DNA of 64,000 bases from a virus: the IMG/VR virus record IMGVR_UViG_3300037467_001798; one strand, given 5' to 3'. The notes beneath the pieces are model-generated. The model saw only the letters and a program-made list of their open reading frames with translations, was not told where the DNA came from and searched no databases. Positions 36,998-55,300 of the stretch are shown piece after piece. A program made the translations under genes and the position numbers. Each line of letters opens with the position of its first letter. Position 1 is the first letter of the stretch.

Positions 36998-37828
36998 ATG
37001 CCGCAGAAATTCGCCAACAACGCCCGCGCGCTGCTCACCGGCAGCATCACCGCGGCCTCCACCAGCCTGACCGTGGAGGCCGGCAAGGCCGACCGCTTCC
37101 CGGTGGCCAACACCACCAGCCACGCCACCCCGCTGGACTGGTTCAAGATCGGCGTGACCGACACCGCCGGCAACCTGGAGGTGATGTACGTGGGCACGCG
37201 CCCGGCCGGCTCGGGCAGCTTCAGCGTGCTGCTGCGCGGCCAGGAGGGCACCACCGCGCGCTCGTTCGCCGCCGGCAGCTTCGTGCAGAGCAGCCTGACC
37301 GCGCTGGACGTGCAGAACGTGCTGGCGGGCCTGTTCTCCTACCTGGGCGTGGTGGGCGCCGGCCCGGTGCTGGAGGTGTCCAAGACCGGCACCGGCGCGG
37401 CCGCCGGCGCGCTCTACATCAACGGCGCGGGTGAACTCGCATTCGCCCAGTCCAACGGCTCGGGCGGCATCACCGCCGATCGCGCCAAGCTCAATCTGAC
37501 CACCGGGCTGCTGACCGCCGCCGACCTGGCGCTGACCTCGGACGAGCGCCTGAAGAAGGACTGGCAGGACGTGCCCGCGGACTTCCTGCAGCAGCTGGCC
37601 GGCGTGCTGTGCGGCACCTACGCGCTGGTGGACGGGGGCGGCGCGCGCCTGGTGGGCGTGGGCGCGCAGAGCCTGCAGGCGGTGCTGGCCGAGGGCGTCA
37701 ACGAGGACGCGCAGGGCCAGCTGCAGGTGCGCTACGGCCAGGTGGCGCTGGTGGCGGCAATCCAGCTGGCCGGCCGCGTGCTGGCCATCGAGCAGCGGCT
37801 GGCGCGCCTGGAGGCCGCCGCGGCATGA
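36998..37828 (+). CDS. tail fibre protein with C-terminal peptidase S74 intramolecular chaperone
   Basis: KFANNA N-terminus; LTSDERLKKD cleavage motif; GVGAQ..Q.VL.E.V; terminal coiled coil. Confidence 0.85.
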   Translation: MPQKFANNARALLTGSITAASTSLTVEAGKADRFPVANTTSHATPLDWFKIGVTDTAGNLEVMYVGTRPAGSGSFSVLLRGQEGTTARSFAAGSFVQSSLTALDVQNVLAGLFSYLGVVGAGPVLEVSKTGTGAAAGALYINGAGELAFAQSNGSGGITADRAKLNLTTGLLTAADLALTSDERLKKDWQDVPADFLQQLAGVLCGTYALVDGGGARLVGVGAQSLQAVLAEGVNEDAQGQLQVRYGQVALVAAIQLAGRVLAIEQRLARLEAAAA

Positions 37829-39006
37829 TCCCGCTGACCGGCACCCTCACCGGCGCTGCGCTGCGCGCCGAACTCGGGCTTGGAAGCGGCGCCATCGCCT
37901 CGCTGCTGGCGGTGGACGGCCTGCGCCGCCTGACCAACCAGCCCACCGGCCCGGTCACCCTGTCGGCCGCGCGCGGCACCGCCTTGCTGCGCGCCAGCGC
38001 CGAGCAGCAGGCCGCCACCATCCTGTGCGGCAGCCCCGCCGCCGCCGGCGCCTACCGGCTGGTGATCGAGCCGGGGGTGGTGGTGGGCTCGACCAGCAGC
38101 GCGGTGGCCGCGCTGGACACCGGCCAGTTCCCCTCGGGCTCGACGCTGGCCATCGACGTGTACGGCAAGGTGCTGGGCGCGGCTGGGCCGGCCGGCTCGG
38201 GGGGTGCGGGCGGCGCCGGCGGCGCGGCCATCAAGGCCAACTACGCCGGGCAGACGGTGACCGTGCGCTACAAGGCCGGCGGCGAGATTCGCGCCGGCGG
38301 TGGCGGCGGCGGCAAGGGCGGTGCCGGCGGCACCGGGGGCACCGGCGGCCAGGGCTACTACAACACCAGCAGCACCGAGGGGCCGGCCTATGCCGCGGGC
38401 TCCTACGAGGTGGAGCACGTGCAGGGCTCGGGCACCTGGACCTTCCGCTGGGGCGGCGGCATCGTCGGCACCAGCGGCGGCACCTCGTTCACCTCGGGCC
38501 CCTACACCTACACCACCGGCGGGCTGGTGACCACCACCTCCGTCGGCAGCGGCGAAACCGGCGACCAGGTGTTCACCGACCATTACCAGGTCTACCGCAC
38601 CACCGCCGGCACCGTCATCACCAACGGCGGCGGCGGTGGCTCCGGTGGCGCGGGCGGCTCCGGTGGCCAGGGCCAGGGCTACAACCGCCAGTCCGCGGCG
38701 CAGTTCGGCTTTGCCGGCTCGCTGGGCAACGGCGGCGCCGGCGGCGGCACCAACGCCGGCACGGGCGGCACCGGCGGCCAGGGCGGCTCCGGTGGTGGCG
38801 GCGGCGCCTGGGGCGTGGGCGGCTCCGGCGGGGCCACCGGCTTTGCCGGCGCCACCGGCAACTCGGGCAACTACAGCGCCGGCAGCGCCGGCAGCGCCGG
38901 CTCGGGCGGCTTTTCTGGCGGCGCCGCCGGCAACGCCGTCATCAAGGGTTCGGCCAGCGTGACAGTCATCAACGACGGCGGCACCATCAGCGGCCCCGTC
39001 AGCTGA
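37825..39006 (+). CDS. glycine-rich adhesin (T-even gp38-like architecture)
   Basis: Short N-terminal attachment region, then many GGxGG runs flanking an aromatic-rich insert. Confidence 0.7.
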   Translation: MIPLTGTLTGAALRAELGLGSGAIASLLAVDGLRRLTNQPTGPVTLSAARGTALLRASAEQQAATILCGSPAAAGAYRLVIEPGVVVGSTSSAVAALDTGQFPSGSTLAIDVYGKVLGAAGPAGSGGAGGAGGAAIKANYAGQTVTVRYKAGGEIRAGGGGGGKGGAGGTGGTGGQGYYNTSSTEGPAYAAGSYEVEHVQGSGTWTFRWGGGIVGTSGGTSFTSGPYTYTTGGLVTTTSVGSGETGDQVFTDHYQVYRTTAGTVITNGGGGGSGGAGGSGGQGQGYNRQSAAQFGFAGSLGNGGAGGGTNAGTGGTGGQGGSGGGGGAWGVGGSGGATGFAGATGNSGNYSAGSAGSAGSGGFSGGAAGNAVIKGSASVTVINDGGTISGPVS

Positions 39007-39023
39007 ACAGGAGGAAGGACAGC

Positions 39024-39305
39024 ATGAAGATCAACTACCGCGTGACCGCGCACGACGCGACGCTGCACACGCTGCAGGTCGAATACTCGACCCCGGACGC
39101 GCCGGGCAAGGTGCTGCCGATGATGTTCGCCATCCCGGTGGTGGACGGCCAGCTGCTGGCGGGCCCGGCGCTGAACGAGGCCATCGCGGCGCAGGCGCCG
39201 GTGTTCGGCTTGAAGCGCATGGCCGAAGTGCACGGCGCGGGCGAGCCCGATCCGGCAGCCCTGCTGGCCATCTGCGGCGAGACCGACGCGACCGCGCCGC
39301 GATGA
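39024..39305 (+). CDS. hypothetical tail-region protein
   Basis: AGGAGG RBS; 93 aa. Confidence 0.65.
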   Translation: MKINYRVTAHDATLHTLQVEYSTPDAPGKVLPMMFAIPVVDGQLLAGPALNEAIAAQAPVFGLKRMAEVHGAGEPDPAALLAICGETDATAPR

Positions 39306-41314
39306 CCAGCCTGAACGCCAAGAGCTTTCGCCCGGCGGTCCCGCGCACCGAGGCGCGGCTGCTGCAGGGCAACTACGCCCAGGTCGCCCTGGCGTGCAAG
39401 CTGCTGCGCGGCTCGTTTGAGCCGTTCAAGGGCCCGAGCCTGGTGCGCACCTCCCCGCAGCCGTCGATCGGCACCGCCTGGCGTTATCGCAACGCCGGGG
39501 TCGACTACTGGCTGGAGTGGGTCGCCGGCGGCGTCGACGTGGTGCGCAGCCCCAACTCGCAGGACGTGCGCAACCGCATCTACTGGGCCGGCGACGGCGA
39601 GCCGCGCATGGCCGCCTTCTCCGACGCCATCAGCGGCGTCAGCTCCTACCCCGGCGCCTGGTACGTGCTGGGCGTCTACATCCCCGGCGCCATCCCCACC
39701 ATCACCCAGACCGGCGGCTCGGGCGCGCAGGAAACGCGCGCCTACATCCACACCTTCGTCACCCAGTACGGTGAGGAGGGCGCCCCCAGCCTGCCCAAGA
39801 TCGTCACCGGGTACAGCAACGCCACCAGCTGGGACATCAGCGGCATGGAGACCGCGCCGCCCAACTCGGGCACCGTCTCGGGCGCCGTCTACCAGGGCAA
39901 CAGCCTCACCCGCGTGACCGTGGACACCACCCGCGGGCTGGCCGCCTACGAGCAGGTGACCTTCGCCTCGGTGGTCGGCATGACCGACCTGAACGCGACG
40001 CTGACCATCGCCTCGGTGGTCGACGCCACCCACATCGACGTGCAGCTGGTGACCGGGCAGACCTACACCTCGGGCGGCACCTGGGCGCGGCGCGCACCGC
40101 ACAACACGACGAACATGCGCCGGCGCATCTACCGCACGGTGGGCACCAACGCCGACTACAAGTTCGTCACCGACATCCCGGCCTCGCAGACCACCTTCAC
40201 CGACAACATCGCGGCCACCGCGCTGGGCGGCGCCTGCCCCTCGATCGACAGCTACACCCCGCCCAAGAACGCGGTGGGCATGTGCTCGCTGGCCAACGGC
40301 TCGCTGTGCCTGGTGGCCGGCAACGAGGCGTGTTTCAGCGAAATCGGCAAGCCGCACAGCTGGCCGCTGGGCAACCGCTACTCCTTCGCCGGCCAGGCCG
40401 TCTCGGCCACCGCCGTGGGCAACTCGGTGGTGGTGGGCACCGATGCGGCGCCGGTGATCGTGGTGGCCACCCGCCCCGAGCAGGGCCAGGCGGCCAAGCT
40501 GGAGGGCGACGCGCTGCCGCCCAACATCGCCAAGCGCGGCACCGTGGACACCGGCAAGGGCGCCCTGTGGCCCTCGCACGATGGCCTGTGGCACGTGACC
40601 CCCGCCGGCGCCACCAACGTGGTCGACAAGCTCTACACCTTTGAGCAGTGGAAGGCCATGCGGCCCGAGACCTTCAAGGCCGCCTTCGTCGACCGCGACT
40701 ACTGGGCCATGCACGACACCACCGACGGCAGCACCAGCAAGCTGCTGCAGCTGGACTTCACCACGCCCGACGGCATCGTGGAGGTCGACGACCAGTTCGA
40801 CGCCCTGTACGCCAACCCGTGGGACGGGCGCATGTACGTGGCCAAGGGCCCCAAGCTGTACCTGTGGGACGAGGACGACACCAACCGCTACCTGGGCGTG
40901 TGGCGCGGGCCGGACTACCAGCTGGGCAAGCCGGTGAACTTCACGGTGGCCCAGGTGCATGCCGACTACGGCCAGATCGTGCCGCTGGACCTGAGCATCC
41001 AGACGGCCAACATCGCGCTGATGGCCAACGCCGACAACGTGGACGGCGCGCTGGGCGTGACCCCGCTGATGGCGGCGCCGCTGGCCGGCTCGGCCATCCA
41101 GGAGCAGCCCGCGCAGACCGCGCGCCGGGTGCAGTTCACCCTGCTCGACAATGACCAGGTGAAGTTCACCCGCGACGTCATCAGCTCCAAGCCGTTCCGG
41201 CTGCCCGAGGGCTTCAAGACCGAGGTGTGCTCGATCCAGATCAGCGCCTCGACCAAGGTGCACAGCGTCACCGTGGCGCAGGGCCTGGAGGAGCTGAAGG
41301 AGACCAGCGTTTGA
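39302..41314 (+). CDS. tail nozzle / tubular protein (P22 gp10 / T7 gp12-like)
   Basis: 670 aa beta-rich protein at the nozzle position; E..FSE...PHSWP motif. Confidence 0.7.
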   Translation: MTSLNAKSFRPAVPRTEARLLQGNYAQVALACKLLRGSFEPFKGPSLVRTSPQPSIGTAWRYRNAGVDYWLEWVAGGVDVVRSPNSQDVRNRIYWAGDGEPRMAAFSDAISGVSSYPGAWYVLGVYIPGAIPTITQTGGSGAQETRAYIHTFVTQYGEEGAPSLPKIVTGYSNATSWDISGMETAPPNSGTVSGAVYQGNSLTRVTVDTTRGLAAYEQVTFASVVGMTDLNATLTIASVVDATHIDVQLVTGQTYTSGGTWARRAPHNTTNMRRRIYRTVGTNADYKFVTDIPASQTTFTDNIAATALGGACPSIDSYTPPKNAVGMCSLANGSLCLVAGNEACFSEIGKPHSWPLGNRYSFAGQAVSATAVGNSVVVGTDAAPVIVVATRPEQGQAAKLEGDALPPNIAKRGTVDTGKGALWPSHDGLWHVTPAGATNVVDKLYTFEQWKAMRPETFKAAFVDRDYWAMHDTTDGSTSKLLQLDFTTPDGIVEVDDQFDALYANPWDGRMYVAKGPKLYLWDEDDTNRYLGVWRGPDYQLGKPVNFTVAQVHADYGQIVPLDLSIQTANIALMANADNVDGALGVTPLMAAPLAGSAIQEQPAQTARRVQFTLLDNDQVKFTRDVISSKPFRLPEGFKTEVCSIQISASTKVHSVTVAQGLEELKETSV

Positions 41315-43278
41315 GCACGCCCACGCGCAGCGCCATCCCGCTGGCCAAGACCGGCGACGCGGCCGTCGACCGGGCGCTGGAGGCCCTGACCCAGAACCTG
41401 AACGGCATCACCGGCCAGGAGAAGAACGCCGACGCCCTGGTGCAGGTGGATGCGGCCAGCACCACCACCGCGGAGTTGGCGGCCCGGCTGAACGTCATCA
41501 TCGAGCGGCTGGGCGGCACCCCGCGCGCCACGGTGGCACCGGCGCCACCGCCGTACATCATGGCGCCCGCCCCCGGCCCGACTCCGGTGCCCGCGCCCAC
41601 GCCGGCGCCTGCGCCCACCCCGGCCCCGACCCCGGCGCCCATGTACAGCTCGCGCATCCAGACCGAGGACGCGGAGCTGACCGGCATCACCACCTCGCCC
41701 GACCCGGTGGCCGGCTACGAGGGCACCGGCCACGCCGACTGGTTCACCGGCAGCGGCCAGCGCATCCGCGCCACCTTCACCGGCGTGCCGGCGGGCACCT
41801 ACCGCGTGCGCACCCGCTACTACGTGTTCGGCGCGCAGCAGAACTACATCGCCATCAACGGCGGCACCCCGGTGCTGCAGATCCAGGACACCGTGGGCGC
41901 CTGGACGCTGCAGGATCTGTCGAGCCTGTCGCTGGCCGGCGGCACCGTCACGGTGGACCTGACGCCCGACTACGGCTACTGCATGTGGGACTGGATCGAG
42001 CTGGTGCAGCTCAGTGCCGGCAGCGCCCCGGCGCCCTCGCCGCCGGCCCCCGCGCCGCCGGCCCCGGCCCCGGCGCCTGGCGCCGCGCCGCATTACCCCT
42101 TCGCCTCGCGGCTGGACCTCACGAGCGGCAGCTACCCGTACGGCATCAAGCCGACGAACTACACCGCCACCCAGATGGACACCAAGGTCAAGGCCGCCTA
42201 CGACGCCTGGAAGGCGGCGCGCCTGGCGGCCTCGCCCTCGTTCGTGGGCGCCGGCATCTACTCGGGCGTGACCATCACCGACGGCTACCACGTGCAGTTT
42301 GCCGACCCGGCCGAGTCCTGCCGCTCCGAGGGCCAGGGCTACGGCATGTTGATCCTGGTGCTGATGGCCGGCTACGAGAGCAACGCGCAGGCGATCTTCG
42401 ACGGCCTGTTCAAGGTGGCGCGCGCCCGCCCCGCCTATGGCATGCCCACCACGGCCAACGCGCACCTGTACCTGATGGAGTGGCGCCTGTACGCCAACAT
42501 GGGCAGCGCCGGAGGCGGCTACAACGCCAGCGACGGCGACCTGGACATCGCGCTGGCCCTCTTGATGGCCCATCGCCAGTGGGGCTCGGGCGGCGCCATC
42601 AACTACTGGCAGGAGGCCCAGAACACCATCGCGGCCATCAAGGCGGTCAACTTCGCCTCGACCGGCGAGCAGTACCTGCCGCAGAACCTGTCGCGCACCT
42701 CCGACTACATGATCGGGCACTTCCGCTCGTTCAAGGCCGCCACCGGCGACACCTTCTGGGACACCGCGCGCACCCGAAGCGCGGCGCTGATCGCCGGCAT
42801 CATCGCCAGCTACTCGGCCACCTACAAGCTGGTGCCCGACTTCATCTACAAGCCCGGCACCGACCCGCAGCCCTCGCCGGGCAACCTGATCGAGGGTGAG
42901 TGGGAAGGCTGGTACGGCCCCAACGCCTGCCGCGTGCCGTGGCGCTGGGGCACCGACTACGTGTGGAGCGGCGACGCCACCTGGAAGGGCTACGCCAAGG
43001 ACATCGTTTCCTTCATCCAGACCGACTGCGCGGGCAACCCGTTCAACGGCCACGACGGCTGGATGCTCAATGGCGCCTTCACCAACAGCCACACCTACAT
43101 GGCCGAGGGCATCCACGGCCCGGCCATGGTCGGGTGCATGGTCGATGCGACGTTCCAGAGCTTCCTGAACACCGAGTTCACCACCCACGCGGACAACTTC
43201 ACCACCGACTACTACGACAGCGAGCTGCAGCTGCTGCCGATGATCGTGGCGTCGGGCAACTGGTGGAGGCCGCTGTGA
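41311..43278 (+). CDS. virion-region protein: N-terminal anchor, CBM6/35-like module and GH8 glycoside hydrolase
   Basis: TTG start overlapping the nozzle stop; Pro-Ala linkers; RSEGQGYGMLILV, LMEW, ASDGDLDIALALLMAHRQWG..GAINY.QEA, NACRVPWR. Confidence 0.88.
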   Translation: MSTPTRSAIPLAKTGDAAVDRALEALTQNLNGITGQEKNADALVQVDAASTTTAELAARLNVIIERLGGTPRATVAPAPPPYIMAPAPGPTPVPAPTPAPAPTPAPTPAPMYSSRIQTEDAELTGITTSPDPVAGYEGTGHADWFTGSGQRIRATFTGVPAGTYRVRTRYYVFGAQQNYIAINGGTPVLQIQDTVGAWTLQDLSSLSLAGGTVTVDLTPDYGYCMWDWIELVQLSAGSAPAPSPPAPAPPAPAPAPGAAPHYPFASRLDLTSGSYPYGIKPTNYTATQMDTKVKAAYDAWKAARLAASPSFVGAGIYSGVTITDGYHVQFADPAESCRSEGQGYGMLILVLMAGYESNAQAIFDGLFKVARARPAYGMPTTANAHLYLMEWRLYANMGSAGGGYNASDGDLDIALALLMAHRQWGSGGAINYWQEAQNTIAAIKAVNFASTGEQYLPQNLSRTSDYMIGHFRSFKAATGDTFWDTARTRSAALIAGIIASYSATYKLVPDFIYKPGTDPQPSPGNLIEGEWEGWYGPNACRVPWRWGTDYVWSGDATWKGYAKDIVSFIQTDCAGNPFNGHDGWMLNGAFTNSHTYMAEGIHGPAMVGCMVDATFQSFLNTEFTTHADNFTTDYYDSELQLLPMIVASGNWWRPL

Positions 43279-43922
43279 ACCGCGAAGCCCTGTGCCTGGC
43301 GCTGGCGCGCCACCGCGAGGCGATCCCGCTGGAGGTGGCGCGCGCCATCATCGAGGAGGTGTGCCCGGTGCCGGCCGCAGCGACGCCGATCGACGTGTAC
43401 GCCCTGGACCCGGTGGCGCACGGCCCGTACACGATCGCGGCCGAGCGGCTGGCGGCGGTGCTGCCCGAGGTGCACCCGCTGCACCAGCTGCACTGGCGCG
43501 AGACCGAGAAGTACCGGCACGGCATCCCGATGGCGCCGGACTACCAGGCCATGATCGCGCGCGACGCGGCCGGGCACTGCCTGCAGCTGACGATCCGCCT
43601 GGAGGGCCAGCTGGTGGGGCACCTGCGCATGTGGCTGTGGCCGCGCTCGCTGCACACCAGCCGCCCGATCGCCGAGGAGGATGCGCTGTTCATCCACCCC
43701 GAGCACCGCGGCGGCTTCCTGGTGATGGCGCTGCTGCGCACCGCCGAGCGCTGGCTGCTGCAGGCATGCCCCGAGCTGAGCGAAATCAAGACCAACAGCA
43801 AGCTGGTGGCGCGCCGCGAAGGCGGCCCCGATGCCAGCGTGCTGATGCGGCGCCTCGGCTACCAGGCCGTGGGCCTGATGCATTCCAAGACCTTTATCCA
43901 AGGAGAGAGCCATGTGCAGTGA
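43275..43922 (+). CDS. GNAT family acetyltransferase-like protein
   Basis: EEDALFIHPEHRGG motif A; position between tail and ejection genes as in other podophages. Confidence 0.75.
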   Translation: MNREALCLALARHREAIPLEVARAIIEEVCPVPAAATPIDVYALDPVAHGPYTIAAERLAAVLPEVHPLHQLHWRETEKYRHGIPMAPDYQAMIARDAAGHCLQLTIRLEGQLVGHLRMWLWPRSLHTSRPIAEEDALFIHPEHRGGFLVMALLRTAERWLLQACPELSEIKTNSKLVARREGGPDASVLMRRLGYQAVGLMHSKTFIQGESHVQ

Positions 43923-45027
43923 AGCGCCCGACACCAGCGGGATGAACGCCGCCGCCGTGCAGCAGGCCGAGCTGTCGCGCGAGCAGCTGGACTTTTTCAA
44001 GCAGCTGTACGCCGACACGGCGCCCGAGCGCGAGGCGGCCGCTTCGCGCCAGAACGCGATCAGCGACGCGCAGCTGGGGCTGATGAACCAGCAGCAGCAG
44101 CTGACCGACGAGGCCAACACGCGCTACAAGGGCACCTTCGTGCCGATCGAGGAGCGCATCGCGCGCGAGGCGATGGCCTACGACACGCCCGAGCGGCGCG
44201 AGCAGGAGGCCGGCCAGGCGATGGCCGATGTCGGCTCGCAGGTCGACCTGGCGCGCGCCGGCGTGCAGCGCGATCTGGCCGACCGCGGGGTGGACGCCTC
44301 CAGCGGCAATGCGGCGGTGGCGCTGTCGCGCATGGCGCTCGGTGAGGGCGCGGCCAAGGCAGCCGCCGGCAACACCGCGCGCAAGCAGGTCGAGACGATC
44401 GGCGCTGCCAAGCTGGCCGACGCCGCGGCGATGGGCCGCGGGGTGATGACCAACCAGGGCACCACCGCCAGCCTGGCGCTCAACGCGGGCAACGCCTCCA
44501 GCGGCAACGCCGGCACGGCGCTGAACACGGCCACCTCGGGCGCCAACCTGATGCAGGCCGGCTACCAGGGCGCCCAGCAGGGCCTGGCCGGCGCGGCCAG
44601 CACCTACGGCAACATCGGCCGCATCGAGAGCCAGGACAGCGGCGGCCTGCTGGGCGGCATCGGCCAGCTGGCCATGGGCGCCGGCGCCATGGGCCTGAAG
44701 TTCTCCGACGAGAACATGAAGGAGGACCGTGAGCCGGTCTCCGGCGAGCTGGCGCTGCGCGCGGTGCGCGAGATGCCGCAGGTGGAGAGCTGGCGCTACA
44801 AGAAAGGCTCGGCCGGCGACGACGGCGGCCGCCGCCACATCGGCCCGATGGCCCAGGACGTCAACCGGCACATGGGCAACAAGGCCGCCCCCGGTGGCGT
44901 GCTGGTCGATCCGACCGAGCTGGTGGGCATCACCCTGGCGGCGGTCAAGGCGGTGGACGCCAAGGTCGACCGCGCCCTGTCCCTGGCCTCGACGGGCCGC
45001 AAACACAAGGAGAGCAAGCATGGGTAA
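43912..45027 (+). CDS. internal virion / ejection protein candidate with C-terminal S74-like domain
   Basis: Ala/Gln/Gly-rich helical body; FSDENMKED...W.YK...HIGPMAQD. Confidence 0.75.
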   Translation: MCSEAPDTSGMNAAAVQQAELSREQLDFFKQLYADTAPEREAAASRQNAISDAQLGLMNQQQQLTDEANTRYKGTFVPIEERIAREAMAYDTPERREQEAGQAMADVGSQVDLARAGVQRDLADRGVDASSGNAAVALSRMALGEGAAKAAAGNTARKQVETIGAAKLADAAAMGRGVMTNQGTTASLALNAGNASSGNAGTALNTATSGANLMQAGYQGAQQGLAGAASTYGNIGRIESQDSGGLLGGIGQLAMGAGAMGLKFSDENMKEDREPVSGELALRAVREMPQVESWRYKKGSAGDDGGRRHIGPMAQDVNRHMGNKAAPGGVLVDPTELVGITLAAVKAVDAKVDRALSLASTGRKHKESKHG

Positions 45028-46342: not shown

Positions 46343-49300
46343 ATGGCGGGCAACGACTGGGGCATGAACGACGCGCGTGCGGACGCGCAGGGCAACGACT
46401 GGGGCGCCGATGACGCGCCGGCGGCGCGGCGCGAGCTGCCCGAAGGGGTGCGCCCGAGCGAGGCGGGCGCCGGCCGCGGCAGCGCGATGGACCCGCGCCA
46501 GCTGGGCGTGCCCGATGCGGCCGAGCGCGTGCCCCAGAAGATCGTGCCCGGCGCGCCGCCGCCGCTGGACTTCAAGCCGGTACCCTCCAACGGCGGGTTC
46601 GACCCCACGTTCGTGGTCAACCGCGAGCCCTACGGCTCGGTGCTGGAGGACCAGGGCGGCGGCGACGTGTCCAACGTGGTGGCCTCGCGCCGCGCCGGCG
46701 CCCAGGAGGATCTGACGCCCAGGCCGCGCATCGAGCCGCGCACGCGCACCGCCGACACCACCATGGCCGACAAGGGCGGCATGCTGCGCGACGCGCCGAT
46801 GCCCGTGCGCGCCGCGGCGCAGGCCGCCGCCGGCGCTGCCGAGGGCGCCTGGGGCACGGTGCGCGCTGGCGCCGACATCGCCGACAGCCTGGGCGTGCCA
46901 GGTGCCGCGGCGGCGGCGCGCTTTGCCGGCAGCGCCGCGCAGGGCGCCAAGCAGTACCAGGAGGGCATGGGCGATCCGCTGCCCAGCACCGACTTCGGCC
47001 CCGACAGCCCCGTGCCGTACCTGCGCAAGCAGGCCGAGGGCGCGGCCAGCTCGCTGGGCACCTCGGCCGCCTTCGCGGTGGGCCTGGGCGCCAAGGCGGT
47101 GATCCCGCTGATGTCGATCCAGTCGGCCGGCCAGCAGTACCAGGCCGCGCGCGAGGCCGGCCTGGAGCCGGGCGCCGCGCTGGCCAACGCCATCCCGTAC
47201 GGCACCTTTGAGGCCATCGGCGAGAAGTTCCAGGGGCTGGACAAGGCCGCCGCGGCGCTGCGCACGCTGATGACGCGCGGGGTGTCGGCGCGCGAGGTCA
47301 AGACCGCCGGCGACATCCTCATGCACGCGGGCATCCGCGAGGTCCCCGGCGAGGTGCTCACCTACCTGGGACAGACCGGGGTGGACCTGCTGCCGGGCAT
47401 CGGGTTGAACCCCAACCTGACGGTCGAGCAGTTCATCGACGGCCTGCGCGACACGGTGGTGCAGTCCTCGATGATGGGCCTGGCCACCGGCGGCGGCGGC
47501 GCCATCGCAGCGGCGCGCGCGCGCACCCCGCGCGAGCGCAGCGCCGAGGACATCGCCCGCGCCAAGGGCTTCCTGGTGCGCCAGGAGCAGATCGACCGCA
47601 TGGGCAAGGCCGGCGAGAAGGAGCTGGCCGGCCAGATGCAGCGCCAGCTCGATGGCGAGCGCGCCGAGGGCGAAATCGCCCTGATGGCCGACAAGCCGTG
47701 GGGCCGCAGCCCCGAGTTCGCGCAGCGCTACCGCGAGCTGCGCGCCGGCGGGGTCAAGCCGGCCGAGGCGGCCGCGCGCGCCTCGATGCACGCCAGCTGG
47801 GGCGAGCTGGCCGGCGGGGTGGGGCTGGACGAGGACGCCTGGAGGAAGGCCGCCGACGCCGCGGCCAAGCTGCCGCTGGACAAGGTGCCGGGGTTCTTTG
47901 AAGCGTTCACCGCGCAGATGGTCAAGAGGGGGCGGGCGCAGACCCTGCCCGAGGGCACCATCGCCGGGGCGGTGGCCGGGGTGCGCGACGACGCCACCCA
48001 CACCGCGCTGGCCGACGTCTACGGCGAGCAAGCGCCCACGGCCACCATGACCGCCATCCAGGAGCTGGAGCGGCGCGCCGACGGCGCGGCACCGGCCGCT
48101 AGCGGATCAGAAACGGCCGTTCCTGAGCCACAAGCCGCGTTGCCTGCAACGAATGAGCCGCAAGGCGAGACGGCGGCCGACTTCGGCGCCGACGACCTCA
48201 CGCGCAACGCGCACGGCATGCACGCCGGCGCCAGCTCGCCGAACAACGACAAGAGCGCCACGCGCGAGCAGATCCTGGCCGGCAACGCGCCGCTGGGCCA
48301 CATGCGCATCGGCGGCATGGGCGCCTCGATCGAGAACGCGCCGGGCAGCGAGCGCATCGACCTGCACAACGAGCCGCCCAACTGGCGCACGCCGATGGCG
48401 CACGGCTACGGCTACGGCTACTTCAAGCGCACCGAGGCGGCCGACTCCACCCAGGCCAAGCGCCAAGGCATCGACGCCTTCATCCGCGAGGACATCCCCG
48501 AGAACTACGACGGCCCGGTGCACGTGATCGACCAGGTGGGCAAGGGCGGCCGCTTCGACGAGCACAAGGCCATCGTGGCCCCCATCTCGGATGCCCAGGC
48601 GCGCCAGGTGTACCTGGCGCACTACGAGCCGGGCTGGCAGGGCCTGGGCGCAATGCGCACCTTCGACACGTTCAGCGAGTTCAAGAAATGGGCCCAGGAT
48701 GGACGAAAGAGCGACCCCGCCAACCCCGACGCCTTCGTGCGCAACCCCTTTGGCGAACACTGGAGCCTCAAGCCGGCCGCCCAGGCTGACGCGCGAGCAG
48801 CAGGAGATGGCCAGGCAGCACGGCCTGACGCCGCAGCAGGCAGCCCTGGTGCACTGGCCGGTGCGCAGCCCGTTGCAGTAACGCCCCTGCGGGTGGGCAT
48901 CACCCCCAACGACGCCCAGCCGGTGTCGATCCGCGCCGGCGTCATCCATGTGGGTGAGGAGCCGGCCTACGACTACGACAGCGGCGAGCCGGTGCGCATC
49001 GAGGGCGGCGCCAGCGACGCCCAGCTCAAGCAGGCGCTGCGCCAGGCCGGCGCGCTGGGCCGCCGCCAGCGCTTCTTCGGCGGCGCGCGCCAGGAGCAGC
49101 CGGCCCAGCATGATGAACCGGCGCCGGACGCGCTGGTCAAGGCCGACGACGGCCAGCCGTTCAAGAGCAAGGCCCAGGCCCAGAAGGCCAGGAAGGGCCA
49201 CCCCGACAAGCGGGTGGTGCGCATCGAGGGCGGCTGGGCGCTGGCCGACAAGACCGCCGCGCAGCTGGAGGCCGAGGCCGCCGCGGCGCGGCGCCTCACC

Positions 49301-52300
49301 GGCAACACCGGCGAGGCCGGCTCGCCCATCTCGGCGCACGCCTTCATCGCCGCCGCCGGTGGCCTGCAGCGCAGCGCCATGGCCGACGCCGGGTTCGATC
49401 GCAACCTGCAGGTGGGCAGCCGCTGGCTGTTCGCCGGCCAGGGCAAGGGCCTGACGATCGAGCAGGCCACCGAGCGCCTGGTCGAGGCCGGCTACCTGCC
49501 CGAGGGCGCCGGCCACAACCAGGCATTCGACCTGCTGCGCAAGAGCGCCACCCAGACCCCGCAGTACACCCCCGAGGGCTGGGAGCGCATCGCGCAGGCC
49601 GAGGGCCAGGCGCGCTTTGACGAGCACCTGCAGGCGCTGGCCGAGCAGGAGGCCCAAGGGGCCGATCCGTTCGCCCCGCTGGACCAGGATCTGCTGGACG
49701 AGGTGGGATTCGACGACCTGGACCCCGAGGAGCAGCGCGACTTCGCCGCGCTGGTGGCCGCGGCCGAGGCCGAGGGGATCGACACCGAGGCGATCCTTGA
49801 GGAAGCAGCCAAGCTGACGCAGAATGGAGACCTTCATGCCTACCACGCCGAAGTCACCCGCCTCCTTGCCCTCCAGCGCGCAGCCCGCGCTGGTGACGGC
49901 CGCGGACAACCTGCTGCAGCGCCAGGTGGTGGCCAAGGGCGGCCTGGCGCCGTCCAGCCGGGCGAGCAAGGCCGCCAGCCAGTACCTGGCCAAGCGGGCG
50001 ATGAAGCAGCTGCAGGCCAAGCCGGCGACCAACAAGGCGCCGTAGAGCGCGCGCGCATCACGCGCGACACCCCCGCCCCGCAAGGCACCACGATCGTCGA
50101 CGGCCAGGGCCGCCAGTACCGGGTCCACGTCAACCGCGGCCACGGCACGCTGGTCACGCATCCGATCGTCGACGGCAAGCCCCAGGTCAGCGCCGACACC
50201 GCGGTGCGCTTCTGGGTCGGCGGCGACGACATGCAGCCGGCCGGCGAGAACGACCGCACCGACCCGGTGTACCGGGCCGACCGGGAACTCATCACGCCCA
50301 GCCAGGACGAGAGCATCGGGAAGAACGATGCGGGCGAGCCGCTGTACCGCCGCAAGGACGGCTCCGTCTATCGGATGCATGCGGGCAAACCCGACTTCGG
50401 CGGCGACCTGGCCGCAGTCGGGGGCGACCTGCTGGGCGAGGCGCCCAACGCCAGCCAGCAGGAGGCGGCCCGCCTCAAGGCCGAAAAGGACGACAAGGCC
50501 CGCCGCGCGCGCGACGCCGCGCCGGAGGCCGACGGCTTCATGCTCACCGGCAGCGATCGCGCCGCTGACGTCGGTGCTGCCGCCGGCCAGAGCGACATCT
50601 TCGGCCAGGACGACAAGCCCGATCCGCGCCAGCCCGCGCCGGCCGACTGGCGCGAGCGCGCCGCCAAGAAGGCAGCGGCCGACCCGGTGGCAGCTGCGCG
50701 CAAGGAGCTGAACGACATCGGCCGCCGGCTGGACCGCGGCAAAGGCAGCAACCCCGGCACCAAGGTCTCCAAGGCCGAGGAGGCCAGGCTGCGCGCCCGC
50801 ATGGACGAGCTGAAGCGGATCATCGTCGAGGCCGACGCAGCCGAGGACCGGGCCGCCACCGCCGACACGGTGGTCAACGGCCAGCCGCGCACCACCGACA
50901 ACCCGCGCGAGTGCCTGCTGCTGATGGCGTGCGGTGCCGAGAAGAACATTCCGCACGGCGGGGCGGCTGCCGGCGACGCCTACACCGGCCCGCTGTGGCA
51001 GACGTTCCGCAAGCACGCGCCGGCCGGCGTCATGGCGCAGCCCGACCTGGCCATCCTGTCCGCGAAATACGGCTTCGTGGGCCGCGGCCAGAACATCGAC
51101 CCCTACGACGAGAAGATGACCGCCGAGAAGGCGGCCAAGATGGCGGCCACACCGCAGGTCGATCGCCTGGCATCGCCCTCCAAGACCGTCTACCGCGACG
51201 TGCAGCTGGTGGGCGGCGCCGAGTACCGCCAGGTCATGCGCGCGTACGTGGCCGCGGCCATCAACCAGGGCCTGATCGCCCCGGACGCGAGCATCCGCGA
51301 GACCACCGGCGTCAACGACAACGGCAAGGGCATCGGTGTGCACCGCGAGCAGCTGGCGCAGTACCTGGACGGCTTCGCTGCCGAAGGAGCAAGCAAGCCG
51401 GCAGGTGGTGAGCAGCAGGAGCTGCTGGCCCCCGGCATGCCCGAGGCGGCGCACCCCGAGCCTGGCCACGAGCCGCTGCCGATGCCGCAGGAGGCATTCG
51501 GCAAGGCGCTGGAGAACGTCGAGCCGTTCCTGCGCGGGGTGGGCGCCACCACGGTGGTGACCGAAAAGCGCGCCACCGAGACCATCACGCCCGAGGAGGC
51601 CGCGGCCCGCCTGCAGGAGTGGAAGGCCGAGGCCCGCCGCCAGGGGCAGACCGGCGCCAACGCCAGCAAGATGGTGCTCAGCCTGTTCGATGCGAGCGGC
51701 GTGTGGTCCCAGCCCTGGGTAGACGCAGGCTACGACGTGCGCACCTTCGACATCCAGACCGGCGAGGACATCAACGACTTCAGCAGCGAGTACCTGCTGG
51801 ACCAGCTGGACCTGCACGACGTGCACGTGATCCTGGCGGCGCCGCCGTGCACCGACTTTTCCAGCTCCGGTGCGCACGCCTGGAAGAAGAAGGACGCCGA
51901 CGGCCGCACCAAAGCCTCGATCCGCCTGGTGCAGCAGACCCTGGCCACCATCGAGCTGATGAAGCCCACGGCCTGGGCGCTGGAGAACCCGGTGGGCCGC
52001 ATCGCCAAGCTCAATGGCCTGCCGCCGCCGTCGCTGACCTTCCAGCCGCACAACTTCGGCGACCCCTACACCAAGCGCACGCTGCTGTGGGGGAACATGG
52101 AGACCGAGCTGCCGCTGGCCAACGTGGAGCCCACCCAGGGCTCCAAGATCGCCAATCTGCCGGGCGCCGACAAGTACGGCCGCAGCCTGACCCCCGAGGG
52201 CTTCGCCTACGCCTTCTTCATGGCCAACAACGCCCAGGCGCTGGGCGTGAGGGGCGTGCTGGCGCGCGAGTTCGCCAACGTGGCCGACGACGTGCGCGCG

Positions 52301-55300
52301 GCCTACGACGCCGGCAAGGCCGCTGGCATGCAGGACCACGAGATCGAGGGCGAGCTGCGCGATGCGGTGGGCGATGCGTACTACGGTGGGGCGTTTGAAG
52401 ATGCCGCCGAAGGTGCGCGCGAGCTGGCCGCCGAGTGGGGCAAGAAGGCCAAGCCGGCCGCCGCTCCCGCCAGCAGCCTGGCCGAGCGATGGGACGCCAT
52501 GACGCCGGCGCAGCGCAGCGACCTGCTGAAGGCAACCCAGGCCAAGCCCGAGACGATCGAGCGCACCAGCGCCAAGAGCTGGGGCGAGCTGAGTGACAGC
52601 TGGCACCGATCGCTGACTCGCGTGCTGGGCGACAAGCCGGCCGCCGCGCCGAAGGCCCAGACGGCAGCCGCGGCGCCGGCCGCCGCACCCGCACCGACCG
52701 CGCCCCCCAAGCCCAAGCACAAAGCGCCCGCGCTGCGCGCCGCCGGCCAGAAGCTGGTCGAGCAGGGCCAGGCCGAGGAAGGCAGGGACCGTCTGGCCAA
52801 CACCCACAAGCGCGCCGCCCAGGCAGCCAGCGCGAGCGCCGCAGCCCGTGCCCAGGTGGCCATGGGCAAGACCATGCAGAACCTGGCTGACGCCATCGAG
52901 GCCGGCCAGGCCGACAAGCTGGTGGGCGTGACCAGCAAGGCCCAGGTGGAAGCCCTGGACCGCGCCATTCTCTCGGCGATGAATGAACGGGACCGGGCCG
53001 AGAACAAGAGCTACGCCCAGACCGAGAAGGAGAAGGGCCGCGCGCCGGACGCCAAGGACGTGCAGTACGCCAAGCTGCCACACCCGAGCTGGAATGTGGG
53101 CGGCGCCACCCCGCAGCGGCTGGAGGAGGCCATCAAGGGAAAGAAGGGCGTGAAGGAGGTGCAGAAGCTGCTGCGCATCCCGCCCAGCGCCGAGCTGCTG
53201 TCCGCGCTCAAGAAGATGGGCGTCAGCCAGAAGGACATCGACTACGCCCTGGGCTGGTGGAACCAGGAGGCCATCGCGCGCCTGGGCCGCTTCGCGCGCA
53301 TGGGCATCACGACCGACGCCGAGCTGCGCACCGCGCTGAATCAGTACATCGAGCACCGCGACGGCCCGAAGGCGGAAGACCCGGTAAAGGCGCTGGAGCG
53401 CCGCCTGATCGGCCAGAAGGTCGGCATCGACTTCTTCCCGACGCCGGCCAGCGTGGCCCAGCAGATGGTGCAGCTGGCCGGCGTGAAGCCTGGCATGCGC
53501 GTGCTGGAGCCGTCCGCGGGCAATGGCAACATCGCCGACGCCGCCAAGGCCGCCGGCGCGCGGGTGGAAGCGGTGGAAATCTCCGACAGCCTGCGCGAGC
53601 TGCTGGAGGCCAAGGGCCACCGCCTGGTGGGCCGCGACTTCATGGAGCTGGAGGCGCCGCATCAGTACGACGCCATCCTGATGAACCCGCCCTTTTCCAA
53701 CCGGATGGACGCCGAGCACATCCAGCGCGCCTGGACCATGCTCAAACCGGGCGGCACGCTGGTGGCCATCGCCGGCGAAGGGGTGTTCTTCGGCTCCGAC
53801 AAGAAGGCCCAGACCTTCCGCGAGTGGCTGGACGAGAACGGCGCCGAGGTGGACAAGCTGCCCGCTGGCACCTTCAAGGACACCCAGCTGCTGGCCACCA
53901 CCGGCACCAACGCGCGGCTGATCTTGCTGGCCAAGCCGGGCGGGGACGAAGATTCCCCGCGACTGGCGCGTGGCATCTGGAAAAGCGAGCTGGCCTCGGC
54001 GATCGAGGGCTCCACCATGAAGGCCGCGCCGGCGCAGGGCTGGCAGGAATACCTGCGCGGGCTGCCCAAGAAGGGCATCAAGCCCGATGAAATCGGCTGG
54101 AGCGGCATCACCGACTGGCTGGCCCTGCAGGACCCGCGCGCCAAGGTGTCCAAGGACGACGTGCTGGCGTTCCTGGCCGACCACGGTGTCCAGGTGGGCG
54201 AGGTGCGCCTGGGTGGCCAGGTGCCGGACGAGCCGGACCTGCACATCACCGACCGGCAGCAGATCGAGCAGGGCGAATACCACGACCCGGTGTTCGATGA
54301 GGACACCGGCGAGGTGATCGAGCCGGGCCAGGACTACACCTACCTGACAGAGCTGACGGTGGAGGACCGCGAGAGCGGCGACCAGTTCATCGTCACGATT
54401 GACGAGGAGGCGGGCAACGTCACGGTGCAGGGCCCGGGCGGCCAGTTCATCGACGTGGCCGCGCCGATGAACCAGCAGGATGAGCAGGATGCGCTCGATG
54501 CCATCCGCCAGCACCTGATCGACCAGCAGAAGGCCGAGGCCGGCGGCAACGACGTGCACGGCCCCACCGAGTTCCACGACTGGAAGGCCATCAAGGAGGG
54601 CGGCGAGAACTACCGCGAGCTGCTGCTGACGCTGCCGCGCACGCCGGGCAAGACCCTGGTGGGCCGCGAGGCGGTGTTTGCCAAGTGGAAGCCGCAGATC
54701 GAAGAAGCGCGCAAGGCGATGGACGCCACGATGGGCGGCTCCATGCAGGAGCGCACCGACGCGATCGCCGCCTACGACAAGCTGGTCGACCAGCGCAACG
54801 AGGAGGCTGCCAGGACCGCCGGCGAAGTGCCCGACTTCACCGACCACCACTGGGGCGACACCGCCAACGTGCTGGCCCACGTGCGCTTTGACGAGCGCAC
54901 CGACGCCGACGGCAAAAAGGTGCTGTTCGTCCACGAAATCCAGAGCGACTGGGCCCAGAAGGGCCGCAGCAAGGGGTTCGACGTGCCCACCGGCATCAAG
55001 CCGGTGAGCGAGGAAGAACTGCGCGCCTTCACCGACCAGCTGGCCCAGGACTACGCCGACAAGCTGCGCGCCGACGGGGTGGATGGCGCCGAGGCCGAGC
55101 GCCGCGCCGCACGCGCCCAGTACCCGCAGATGGCCGAGGCGCTCGGTCGCGCGCAGCAGCTGCAGGACATGCAGGCCGGGCGCGAGCAGGCGCTGAGCGG
55201 CAAGAAGAAGGCCATCCCGCCTGGTCCCTTCGTGATGTCCACCGACGCCTGGGTGGCGCTGGCGCTCAAGCGCATCGTGCGCTACGCCGCCGACGGTGGG

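Follow-up and report, generated by a model that had tools for sequence, protein, structure and literature searches.

Location and architecture of the gene

We analysed a 64,000-nucleotide (nt) stretch of viral DNA (IMG/VR record IMGVR_UViG_3300037467_001798; "the window" below means this whole stretch), with emphasis on a gene that encodes a 655-amino-acid (aa) protein ending in a glycoside hydrolase family 8 (GH8) domain and that lies directly behind the gene for the tail nozzle. An earlier note, made from the sequence alone, had proposed that this gene encodes a particle-borne polysaccharide-degrading enzyme. The window has 70% G+C throughout and derives from a tailed phage, as indicated by genes for a terminase, a P22-type portal, a Phage_capsid_3 major head protein and several fibres, the separate fibre genes sitting both upstream and downstream of the GH8 gene. 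No tRNA genes were found in the window. The features of the nozzle and GH8 genes are as follows; the evidence for each is given in brackets, where AF2 stands for the AlphaFold2 model, PDB for the Protein Data Bank, GC3 for third-position G+C content, pLDDT for the predicted local distance difference test and CBM for carbohydrate-binding module.

39302..41314, + strand: nozzle gene, 670 aa, with a 4-nt overlap with the GH8 gene (8JOV_A, phrog_511)
41297..41303, + strand: Shine-Dalgarno-like AAGGAGA, 7 nt 5' of the TTG start codon (sequence read directly)
41311..43278, + strand: whole gene, 655 aa, with the order anchor, linker, CBM35-like module, linker, GH8 domain (profiles, PDB search, AF2, GC3)
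41311..41538, + strand: N-terminal anchor, residues 1-76, two helices, predicted homotrimer (conservation in the homologues P0122 and P0123, AF2, complex prediction)
41539..41643, + strand: linker 1, rich in Pro, Ala and Thr, residues 77-111 (pLDDT <50, no predicted secondary structure, composition)
41644..42021, + strand: CBM35-like beta-sandwich, residues 112-237 (Foldseek, sub-threshold Pfam match, relatives, pLDDT 83-96)
42022..42093, + strand: linker 2, rich in Pro and Ala, residues 238-261 (AF2, composition)
42094..43275, + strand: GH8 (alpha/alpha)6 catalytic domain, residues 262-655 (Pfam, PDB search, HMMER alignments, AF2, Foldseek)

The open reading frame (ORF) was accepted as real because its in-frame GC3 signal, at 0.94-0.99 over positions 41300-43250, ends at the stop codon, with another frame taking over right past it. 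Its start codon, TTG 41311, overlaps the TGA of the nozzle gene by 4 nt (TTGA) and agrees with the N-termini of the homologues P0122 and P0123.

The AF2 model, which was built on 71 sequences, had a mean pLDDT of 85, with a confident beta-sandwich at residues 111-237 (83-96) and a very confident GH8 domain at residues 262-655 (>90). The N-terminus was modelled as two helices (residues 17-33 and 53-66), and disordered linkers occupied residues 64-100 and 241-257. The helical anchor of about 70 residues, Pro-Ala linker and second linker that had been read from the translation are therefore borne out by the model, the helical N-terminus comprising about 76 residues. Assignment of the sandwich was less straightforward. 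The Pfam profile CBM_35 (PF16990) matched residues 117-231 at 21.7 bits (E 2.7e-4), below its cut-off of 28, and we therefore call the module CBM35-like and not a member of the family. Foldseek superposed the sandwich on the CBM35 modules 3WNO and 3WNP over about 125 columns, with a root-mean-square deviation (rmsd) of 2.9-3.3 A, 25% identity and E values of 2e-6 to 4e-6, and also matched it to the CBM35 module of 3ZM8; relatives that are about 50% identical across this region bear PF16990. A CBM6/35-like module had been placed at about 41650-42015, and a beta-sandwich of CBM35-like fold does occupy that position, while its Pfam score stays under the threshold.

The GH8 catalytic domain

The C-terminal domain matched Pfam Glyco_hydro_8 (PF01270) at 53.6 bits against a cut-off of 24 (E 2.3e-14; residues 324-646), so that the earlier call of a complete GH8 domain at about 42090-43278 was upheld by a profile search, which that note had suggested as a check, and by the predicted (alpha/alpha)6 fold of residues 262-655. 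Within PHROGs, only the GH8 part of the protein had a match, covering positions 1253-1640 (of 2079) in a family that bears the label "major tail protein". A sequence search of the PDB ranked the Paenibacillus glucanase BGlc8H (5XD0) first (E 1.3e-66, 35% identity), followed by the chitosanases ChoK (1V5C, 34% identity) and 7CJU (both about 1e-56), and these values of 1e-66 and 1e-56 compare with 5e-25 and 1e-9 for enzymes of the GH8a and GH8c subgroups, the former being that of CelA (1CEM). Superposition of the modelled barrel, a second check that had been suggested, gave the same picture, with a template modelling (TM) score of 0.91 and an rmsd of 2.0 A to 5XD0, TM scores of about 0.9 to the Bacillus chitosanases and 0.85 to CelA, and lower values for GH8 xylanases (0.7-0.8) and BcsZ-type enzymes (0.70-0.75, at 17-20% identity).

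Residue correspondences were taken from HMMER alignments to solved chains, and conservation was counted in an alignment (A1) of 71 rows, 69 of which are GH8 relatives. The positions of interest are the following.

42328..42330, + strand: E340, within SEG, predicted proton donor (aligned with the CelA Glu; conserved in 69/69 GH8 rows)
42532..42546, + strand: D408-G-D410-L-D412, GH8 signature Asp cluster (conservation in A1)
42892..42906, + strand: loop E528 to E532, with E528 a candidate catalytic base (alignment with the ChoK loop Glu)
42922..42924, + strand: N538, in place of the CelA-type base Asp (aligned with the D of CelA Y-K-Y-D-A-T-R; N in 69/69 rows)

E340 aligns with Glu95 of CelA, the conserved proton donor of the second inner helix, a residue that is Q in the substrate-complex entry 1KWF, which we take to be the E95Q mutant. 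The stretch ASDGDLD (residues 406-412) aligns with the GH8 signature A-x-D-G-D-x-D, and both it and the SEG Glu lie intact at the positions where they had been reported; D408 and D410 are conserved in 69 of the 71 rows and D412 in all 71, while A406 and G409 are invariant or nearly so. Together with E340 and N538, the residues D408, D410 and R541 are invariant among the GH8 rows.

The catalytic loop reads ...PSPGNLIEGEWEGWYGPNACRVPWR, containing N538, and includes a 6-residue insertion before that residue which is absent from CelA. The counterpart of E528 in ChoK is the Glu at chain position 261, and all 69 GH8 rows have an acidic residue (D or E) in this column; in the column of E532, 64 rows have E and 3 have D. 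The catalytic pair of ChoK was reportedly assigned by Adachi and co-workers as Glu122 and Glu309. We take the position-261 Glu to be Glu309, a numbering checked only via spacing, since this Glu sits 187 residues past the Glu of the ChoK S-E-G motif and 187 equals 309 minus 122. The pattern named in the earlier note, an Asn for the CelA-type Asp and a Glu in the preceding loop, is thus recovered in both of its parts, N538 falling on the CelA Asp at the end of helix alpha8 and E528 on the ChoK loop Glu. Because E340, D408 and D410, the acidic residue at 528, E532 and N538 are conserved across the relatives, the domain can be said, on sequence grounds, to hold the full predicted active-site set of the GH8b (chitosanase/lichenase-type) subgroup. 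The position of the acid and that of an alternative base in GH8 enzymes have been described (PMC6173055, citing Adachi 2004).

Some phage receptor-binding proteins are inactivated enzymes, and the GH8 domain could by that precedent be a non-hydrolysing module that recognises a carbohydrate receptor. We regard this as highly improbable, since the active-site residues are all intact and conserved across the 69 relatives, and since a separate CBM already provides binding.

The nozzle gene and the position behind it

The protein encoded upstream of the GH8 gene matched PDB chain 8JOV_A, the 577-aa protein present in six copies in phage GP4 (E 7.6e-48), as well as phrog_511 (3.8e-112). Its homologues include GP4 gp74, 933W L0124 and counterparts in podophages of Burkholderia, Agrobacterium, Pseudomonas and Vibrio, and on this homology the upstream gene is that of the hexameric nozzle of a GP4/933W-type podophage with a T=9 head. 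The direct coupling of the GH8 gene to a nozzle gene, as earlier described, therefore stands, given the 4-nt overlap and the similarity to a hexameric structure.

The virion of phi24B, described in a 2026 preprint, has a T=9 head, two adaptor rings, a hexameric nozzle (gp57), six lateral fibres (gp61) and a trimeric central needle (gp56), whose N-terminal domain lies in the nozzle lumen and which is lost on DNA release. The gene order L0124-L0125-L0126-L0127 of 933W equals gp57-56-55-54 of phi24B, and the lengths of 75 and 204 aa in the preprint fit L0126 and L0127. The 933W genes L0124 and L0125 share a 4-nt overlap, as do the nozzle and GH8 genes of the window. Likewise, the nozzle gene of SU10 (gp17) is followed by that of its needle (gp18). 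Genes 10 and 26 of P22 have the same order. Lateral-fibre genes lie upstream in phi24B/933W and in SU10. Because the gene after the nozzle encodes the needle in phi24B/933W and SU10, we place the GH8 gene in the needle slot, which by analogy is the position of a central needle or fibre and not a generic tailspike position. Among cultured relatives, the post-nozzle protein varies widely in length, from 81 aa in Atu_ph08, 106 in GP4 and 116 in CSP3 to 303 in Skulduggery and 422 in 933W, where it contains a Phage_Tail_Tip domain; the GH8 protein has neither a Tail_Tip domain nor a beta-prism.

A conserved anchor with exchanged enzymes

When residues 1-110 alone were used as query, two proteins were found, P0122 and P0123, which are 53-54% identical to the GH8 protein over residues 5-76 (54% against residues 5-74 of P0122) and have C-termini unrelated to GH8. 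The metagenomic contig that encodes P0122 (L009) represents a sister phage, with a nozzle that is 69% identical over its full length, flanking fibre genes that are 47-60% identical to those of the window, and conserved synteny. P0122 (L009:10001-11398) occupies the slot behind the nozzle gene, and can be aligned with the GH8 protein over the first ~78 residues only (53%). Its C-terminal domain had a weak Pfam match to GH12, and several further lines of evidence agreed with that match. PF01670 was carried by 13 of 43 homologues of this domain, a profile of the P0122 family matched the GH12 xyloglucanase 2JEM (2.4e-20), the top 50 Foldseek matches of its AF2 model were all GH12 (TM ~0.8), and both GH12 catalytic Glu motifs were invariant in the family. 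We conclude that the C-terminal domain of P0122 is, judged by sequence and model, a predicted GH12 glucanase. Homologues of this GH12 domain were also seen fused to phiJL001-type hub N-termini and to CBM35, and occur in Ramlibacter.

Since the anchor was kept while the enzymes behind it, GH8 and GH12, were swapped, residues 1-76 appear to be specific to the particle, with the remainder forming an exchangeable cassette. An N-terminal module that is conserved independently of the enzyme behind it is the signature expected of a virion-attached tail protein, to the extent that this can be read from sequence. Prediction of a complex of three copies of residues 1-80 gave an ipSAE of 0.80 (calibrated on two copies), compared with 0.01 for the best control; among solved one-chain pairs, 21 of 30 attained this mark, and among 23 single chains none did. 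The trimer runs showed at least 85% contact agreement and a partner pLDDT of at least 76, which supports a homotrimeric anchor at the level of a model.

A trimeric N-terminus could also mount the protein laterally, on the outside of the nozzle or adaptor in the manner of T7-type fibres or KP32/KP34 spikes, in up to six trimers and with some other component as the plug. That arrangement would sit well with the lack of similarity to known needles and of a coiled-coil shaft, and in GP4, CSP3 and Atu_ph08 the slot holds only a protein of 81-116 aa. We nevertheless consider it unlikely, because the post-nozzle gene encodes an axial needle in the structures of phi24B/933W and SU10, where lateral-fibre genes lie upstream, and because the window already has separate fibre genes on both sides.

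The cassette in other phages and its phylogeny

Residues 112-654, which span the CBM, the second linker and the GH8 domain, are about 50% identical to metagenomic proteins of 612-695 aa. Three contigs with this CBM-GH8 combination are SU10-like podophages, in which the gene overlaps the end of a 483-485-aa gene behind an SU10-type adaptor. On contig L001 the protein encoded by that upstream gene is a nozzle homologue (PDB 8ZKK "nozzle gp16", 3e-14), and this SU10-type nozzle is unrelated in sequence to that of the window. Elsewhere, a 1103-aa protein that combines a beta-helix, CBM35 and GH8 closes a siphophage tail module, and a prophage remnant of Ramlibacter tataouinensis encodes a 1007-aa protein with a Gp80 N-terminus and GH8 beside a lysozyme. 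Single-protein scans of IMG/VR and GTDB found nothing, while alignment-based scans found relatives, including those on eleven IMG/VR contigs. Among the proteins on these IMG/VR contigs are some of 1100-2000 aa that end in GH8, their other part being a phiJL001-type baseplate-hub N-terminus, a beta-helix or a GH5 cellulase domain.

Some details of these loci deserve mention in their own right. The R. tataouinensis TTB310 remnant has two tail proteins with Gp80 N-termini (L005:6157-8469 and L005:10001-13024), one with GH8 and one with a weak GH18 match, which flank the phage lysozyme gene and adjoin an integrase fragment and an abortive-infection-like AAA/DUF4435 pair. The combinations of GH8 with GH5, with a phiJL001 hub plus BR0599, or with a beta-helix are found at L016:3111-9182, L017:5859-9191, L019:5844-9170 and L013:63-6032 of the IMG/VR set.

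A quick maximum-likelihood tree of 125 GH8 domains (LG+G4, midpoint rooted, supports from the Shimodaira-Hasegawa-like approximate likelihood ratio test (SH-aLRT) only) placed the query in a clade of 24 phage-type proteins and 2 bacterial lipoproteins (SH-aLRT 96), to which 2 further bacterial lipoproteins were sister with a support of 100. Genomic context confirmed the label "phage-type" for five proteins as well as for the IMG/VR rows. The other side of the tree consisted of 88 bacterial rows, with three IMG/VR proteins (from contigs L016, L017 and L019) placed separately among them, which suggests that these GH8 sequences were acquired separately from the main phage-type clade. Because the GH8 domain of the window falls in a mainly phage-type clade, the cassette appears to circulate among phage tail proteins, and a recent capture from a host gene, which we considered, is unsupported. 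The phylogeny that the earlier note had called for thus narrows its proposal of capture from a bacterial secreted enzyme, an origin that holds at depth only and is not a fresh event here. As far as the tree can be read, exchange of the cassette with Comamonadaceae genomes has happened. The two bacterial lipoproteins nested in the phage-type clade, P0023 and P0032 (L023/L032, Comamonadaceae metagenome-assembled genome (MAG)), may reflect phage-to-bacterium transfer; a RES/Xre toxin-antitoxin pair and a gene for an Mrr-like nuclease are found close to P0023.

Cultured phages offered no counterpart. A tblastn search of INPHARED (50,697 GenBank phage records) with the whole protein gave no match, and one with the GH8 part alone, at E up to 1, gave two weak matches of 22-27% identity and no convincing relative. 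A fold search of BFVD returned no convincing GH8 fold, the top matches having TM scores <0.2 and stemming from the linkers or the CBM, apart from one match of TM 0.35/0.41 at 10% identity. The view that an (alpha/alpha)6 GH8 enzyme with a CBM is atypical for a phage is accordingly consistent with both databases. The earlier note had named the existence of many characterised phage orthologues as a point that would speak against its proposal; such orthologues are absent from cultured phages, although dozens of relatives exist in metagenomic phages, all uncharacterised. In the literature, which was incompletely covered, no GH8 phage depolymerase or tail protein was described, and only false positives appeared (a phage named GH8, and the families GH84 and GH87).

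The distribution of the cassette also bears on whether the enzyme is part of the particle at all. The catalytic part has the build typical of enzymes secreted in free form, being monomeric, modular and cellulase-like and carried by flexible linkers, and the protein could be a soluble late glycanase that is freed at lysis and acts outside the particle, loosening the biofilm matrix so that progeny can disperse or stripping receptors from lysed cells. Several observations make this very unlikely. The phage protein has no signal peptide, whereas its bacterial relatives have lipoprotein or Sec signals; its gene is translationally coupled to the nozzle gene within the tail module; the N-terminal module is kept in the sister phage while the enzyme is swapped; and in other phages the cassette is fused to bona fide tail-protein N-termini.

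Bacterial relatives, substrate and host

In an alignment-based scan that covered one genome per species, 199 relatives came to light. Among the best 80 of the 199, 56 were from Comamonadaceae (40 Ramlibacter, 9 Polaromonas, 3 Caenimonas, 1 Acidovorax and 3 unnamed), and the nearest cellular relatives were lipoproteins of Comamonadaceae, mostly Ramlibacter, the closest at 55-60% identity. The base composition of the window (70% G+C) and this distribution of homologues point to a Ramlibacter-like host. A few relatives occur in predatory bacteria; Bdellovibrionales and myxobacterial MAGs (L066, L072, L076, L046, L099 and L100) carry GH8b relatives with 44-61% identity in the best segment (35% for L100), and such bacteria may turn GH8b on the matrix of their prey.

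In Ramlibacter sp. Leaf400 the homologue lies within a Wzx/Wzy exopolysaccharide (EPS) cluster, with Wza, Wzz, a priming transferase and several glycosyltransferases. The same cluster surrounds the homologue in at least 6 other genomes, and a second EPS-type neighbourhood in 2-4 more. In Leaf400 (L021:1-21208) and at L037, L038, L041, L043, L050 and L088, the GH8b lipoprotein gene stands between genes for Acetyltransf_6 and a FAD oxidoreductase. The Comamonadaceae EPS-cluster GH8b lipoprotein is thus a candidate EPS-processing glycanase for an uncharacterised polymer. The three other look-ups showed unrelated neighbours around the homologue, and the idea that all bacterial relatives lie in EPS clusters was rejected.

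The characterised relatives BGlc8H, Cel8Pa and celA1805 act on barley beta-glucan, lichenan, carboxymethylcellulose (CMC), phosphoric acid-swollen cellulose (PASC) and chitosan. With the GH12 domain in the sister slot and the GH5 domain fused to GH8 elsewhere, we favour, by analogy, a substrate with a beta-1,4-gluco-configured backbone (a glucan or mixed-linkage glucan) over a chitosan-like one. A true chitosanase, acting on a chitosan-like, partly de-N-acetylated EPS of the host that contains glucosamine (GlcN), is the alternative. GH8b does include ChoK (34% identity, TM ~0.9), and a GH18-like region stands beside GH8 in R. tataouinensis and in one IMG/VR protein, with matches below or near threshold. 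Even so, we think this specificity rather doubtful, as the best match is the broad-spectrum glucanase BGlc8H (5XD0), and the characterised members of the subgroup degrade chitosan no better, or less well, than CMC, beta-glucan and lichenan. It is also at odds with the enzymes that accompany or replace GH8 in related proteins, namely the sister-slot domain, which belongs to an endoglucanase/xyloglucanase family, and the cellulase domain joined to GH8 in another phage protein.

Proposed function

Taken together, these results suggest that the protein is a depolymerase for polysaccharides, attached to the virion of a soil-type podophage of the GP4/933W kind, anchored on the nozzle and directed at an EPS or capsule, a reading to which we assign a probability of roughly 0.7. 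The earlier proposal of a particle-borne enzyme is thus supported as far as in silico evidence reaches, with refinements as to the slot, the origin of the cassette and its distribution among phages. From them we infer the presence of the GH8 protein in the virion, its axial position, its substrate and its host. Residues 1-76 would assemble into a trimer that serves as plug or anchor on the nozzle, its most likely seat being the central channel, where related phages hold their needle. Each of the three chains would continue through a disordered Pro/Ala tether to the CBM35-like module, which would hold the polysaccharide, and through a second tether to the monomeric GH8 (alpha/alpha)6 enzyme. 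The enzyme would cut beta-1,4 linkages with inversion, using E340 as the acid and the loop carboxylate E528 as the base, helped by or alternating with E532, the CelA-type Asp being here N538. The most likely substrate would be a glycan from the EPS, capsule or biofilm of a Ramlibacter-like host within the Comamonadaceae, its backbone being beta-1,4-gluco-configured (a glucan, a mixed-linkage glucan or a partly GlcN-containing polymer). In this way the enzyme would open a path along the tail axis, and if it behaves like other needles, the protein would leave the particle at DNA ejection.

A number of observations weigh against this interpretation, or against parts of it. AF2 confidence is low for residues 1-100, and the model has no coiled-coil shaft past residue 66 and no beta-prism tip, unlike known needles. 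BLAST found no similarity between the anchor and the needle of 933W/phi24B (933W L0125). Since both the shaft and similarity to needles are missing, we claim occupancy of the slot only, and not membership in a needle family. We also considered whether the anchor is homologous to the small proteins encoded behind the nozzle in GP4, CSP3 and Atu_ph08, and found no support, as BLAST gave no match and hhalign a probability of 0.2% with 3-sequence profiles; the relationship is one of positional analogy only. The PDB contains no entry for GP4 gp73. A trimeric N-terminal adaptor is, moreover, equally typical of lateral fibres. With respect to mechanism, E528 and E532 are both candidates for the catalytic base. 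With respect to substrate and host, only one of four look-ups placed the bacterial homologue in an EPS cluster, and a homology test did so for 11 of 84 loci. Enzymes from such clusters and those of the phages belong to separate clades, and the assignment of the host is an indirect one, drawn from composition and the occurrence of homologues.

A broader interpretation, which we offer tentatively and hold to be somewhat less probable than even, is that phages of Comamonadaceae have turned the needle into a modular "drill head", in which a trimeric plug carries three tethered heads, with or without a CBM, and GH8 and GH12 cassettes are exchanged. As part of this interpretation, the GH8 cassette would, judging by the sequences, also be moving between unrelated nozzle families and into siphophage tail tips. 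If true, a single ejectable protein would both degrade the matrix and gate the channel, a combination that our searches did not find described for any cultured phage.

Relation to known systems

The closest enzyme in both sequence and fold is BGlc8H of Paenibacillus sp. X4 (5XD0), which like Cel8Pa is a beta-1,3-1,4/beta-1,4-glucanase with chitosanase side activity. It shares with the phage GH8 domain the Asn at the CelA-Asp position and the Glu of the F/I-L/I-E-G loop, but it is a secreted, single-domain Firmicute enzyme that lacks the CBM, virion anchor and Pro/Ala tethers of the phage protein. ChoK of Bacillus sp. K17 (1V5C; with 7CJU and 7XGQ), which founded GH8b, also has the Asn for the classical base and a loop Glu that corresponds to E528 (E ~1e-56); it differs in having Thr at the position of E532, which is nearly invariant among the relatives of the phage domain, and is a secreted enzyme that prefers chitosan. 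The GH8 fold is likewise common in enzymes of EPS clusters (BcsZ/CMCax; the Wzx/Wzy clusters of Ramlibacter), which presumably process the cell's own EPS. The Ramlibacter enzymes are 46-50% identical to the phage domain and have the same catalytic set, but they are lipoproteins outside the clade of the phage enzymes, and the BcsZ type represents another GH8 subgroup.

With regard to its place in the particle, the protein resembles the needles phi24B gp56/933W L0125, SU10 gp18 and P22 gp26, which are encoded behind the nozzle or hub gene and combine a trimeric, virion-binding N-terminus with a variable distal part; in the GH8 protein the trimer is a prediction. It has no sequence similarity to them, and disordered tethers, a CBM and a monomeric enzyme replace the shaft and tip. 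An enzymatic needle with a CBM and tethered glycoside hydrolases did not turn up in the searches made. Classical tailspikes (P22 gp9, Klebsiella KP32/KP34) follow a shared logic, that of an N-terminal particle module with an exchangeable glycan-degrading C-terminus, but are rigid, intertwined beta-helix trimers, in contrast to the predicted monomeric (alpha/alpha)6 enzyme on linkers with a CBM. The closest cultured functional analogue that we found is the podophage S6 of Erwinia (Schitoviridae), whose beta-1,4-glucanases gp095 (GH5) and gp094 (GH48) are directed against the host exopolysaccharide, and for which bacterial cellulose serves as the first receptor (PMC9544554). The S6 enzymes belong to other GH families and folds, in an N4-like lineage, and their genes lie in a polymorphic tailspike region.

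A tail enzyme that digests host glycans is thus a classical strategy; what is unusual is the fold, the cellulase-like tethered architecture, the position in the needle slot, and the swapping of GH8 and GH12 on one anchor. The reach of a phage among encapsulated or biofilm-dwelling bacteria is set by its virion depolymerases, which are also in demand as agents against biofilms. To our knowledge, nearly all that have been characterised are rigid beta-helix trimers on lateral spikes. The gene described here is a candidate enzymatic needle, with a probable host group in Ramlibacter and its relatives, whose EPS clusters encode homologous GH8 enzymes, and it could provide a route to the chemistry of the EPS of that group. 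Nor is it a one-off, since GH8 and GH12 are swapped on one anchor and uncultivated phages of soil and freshwater bear the GH8 cassette on several tail scaffolds that are unrelated to one another.

Neighbouring genes

One further gene was assigned by profile in the region that follows the GH8 gene.

43335-43922, + strand: GNAT acetyltransferase, directly after the GH8 gene, start uncertain between GTG 43335 and GTG 43368 (profile match to Acetyltransf_1, E 6e-8)

A GNAT gene likewise follows the post-nozzle slot in Atu_ph08, GP4 (gp72), CSP3 and Skulduggery, and does not do so in 933W. The conserved acetyltransferase gene thereby lies between the nozzle/needle genes and those of the ejection proteins. 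The listed ORF at 43292-43945, for which we found no similarity to 933W L0127, was discarded as an off-frame artefact by GC3. Upstream of the nozzle gene, a tblastn search with the sister-phage protein located a GP38-family gene at 37825-39006 (+ strand), which begins at the end of an S74 fibre gene (36998-37828). The 426-aa ORF at 38025-39305 uses another frame and is probably an artefact, so that about 300 nt remain ahead of the nozzle gene. Further downstream, a single ORF of 5462 aa (46343-62731, + strand) stands where GP4, CSP3, Skulduggery and phi24B (gp47) encode their giant ejection or "DarB-like" proteins, and is far longer than these positional counterparts, that of GP4, for example, having 3224 aa.

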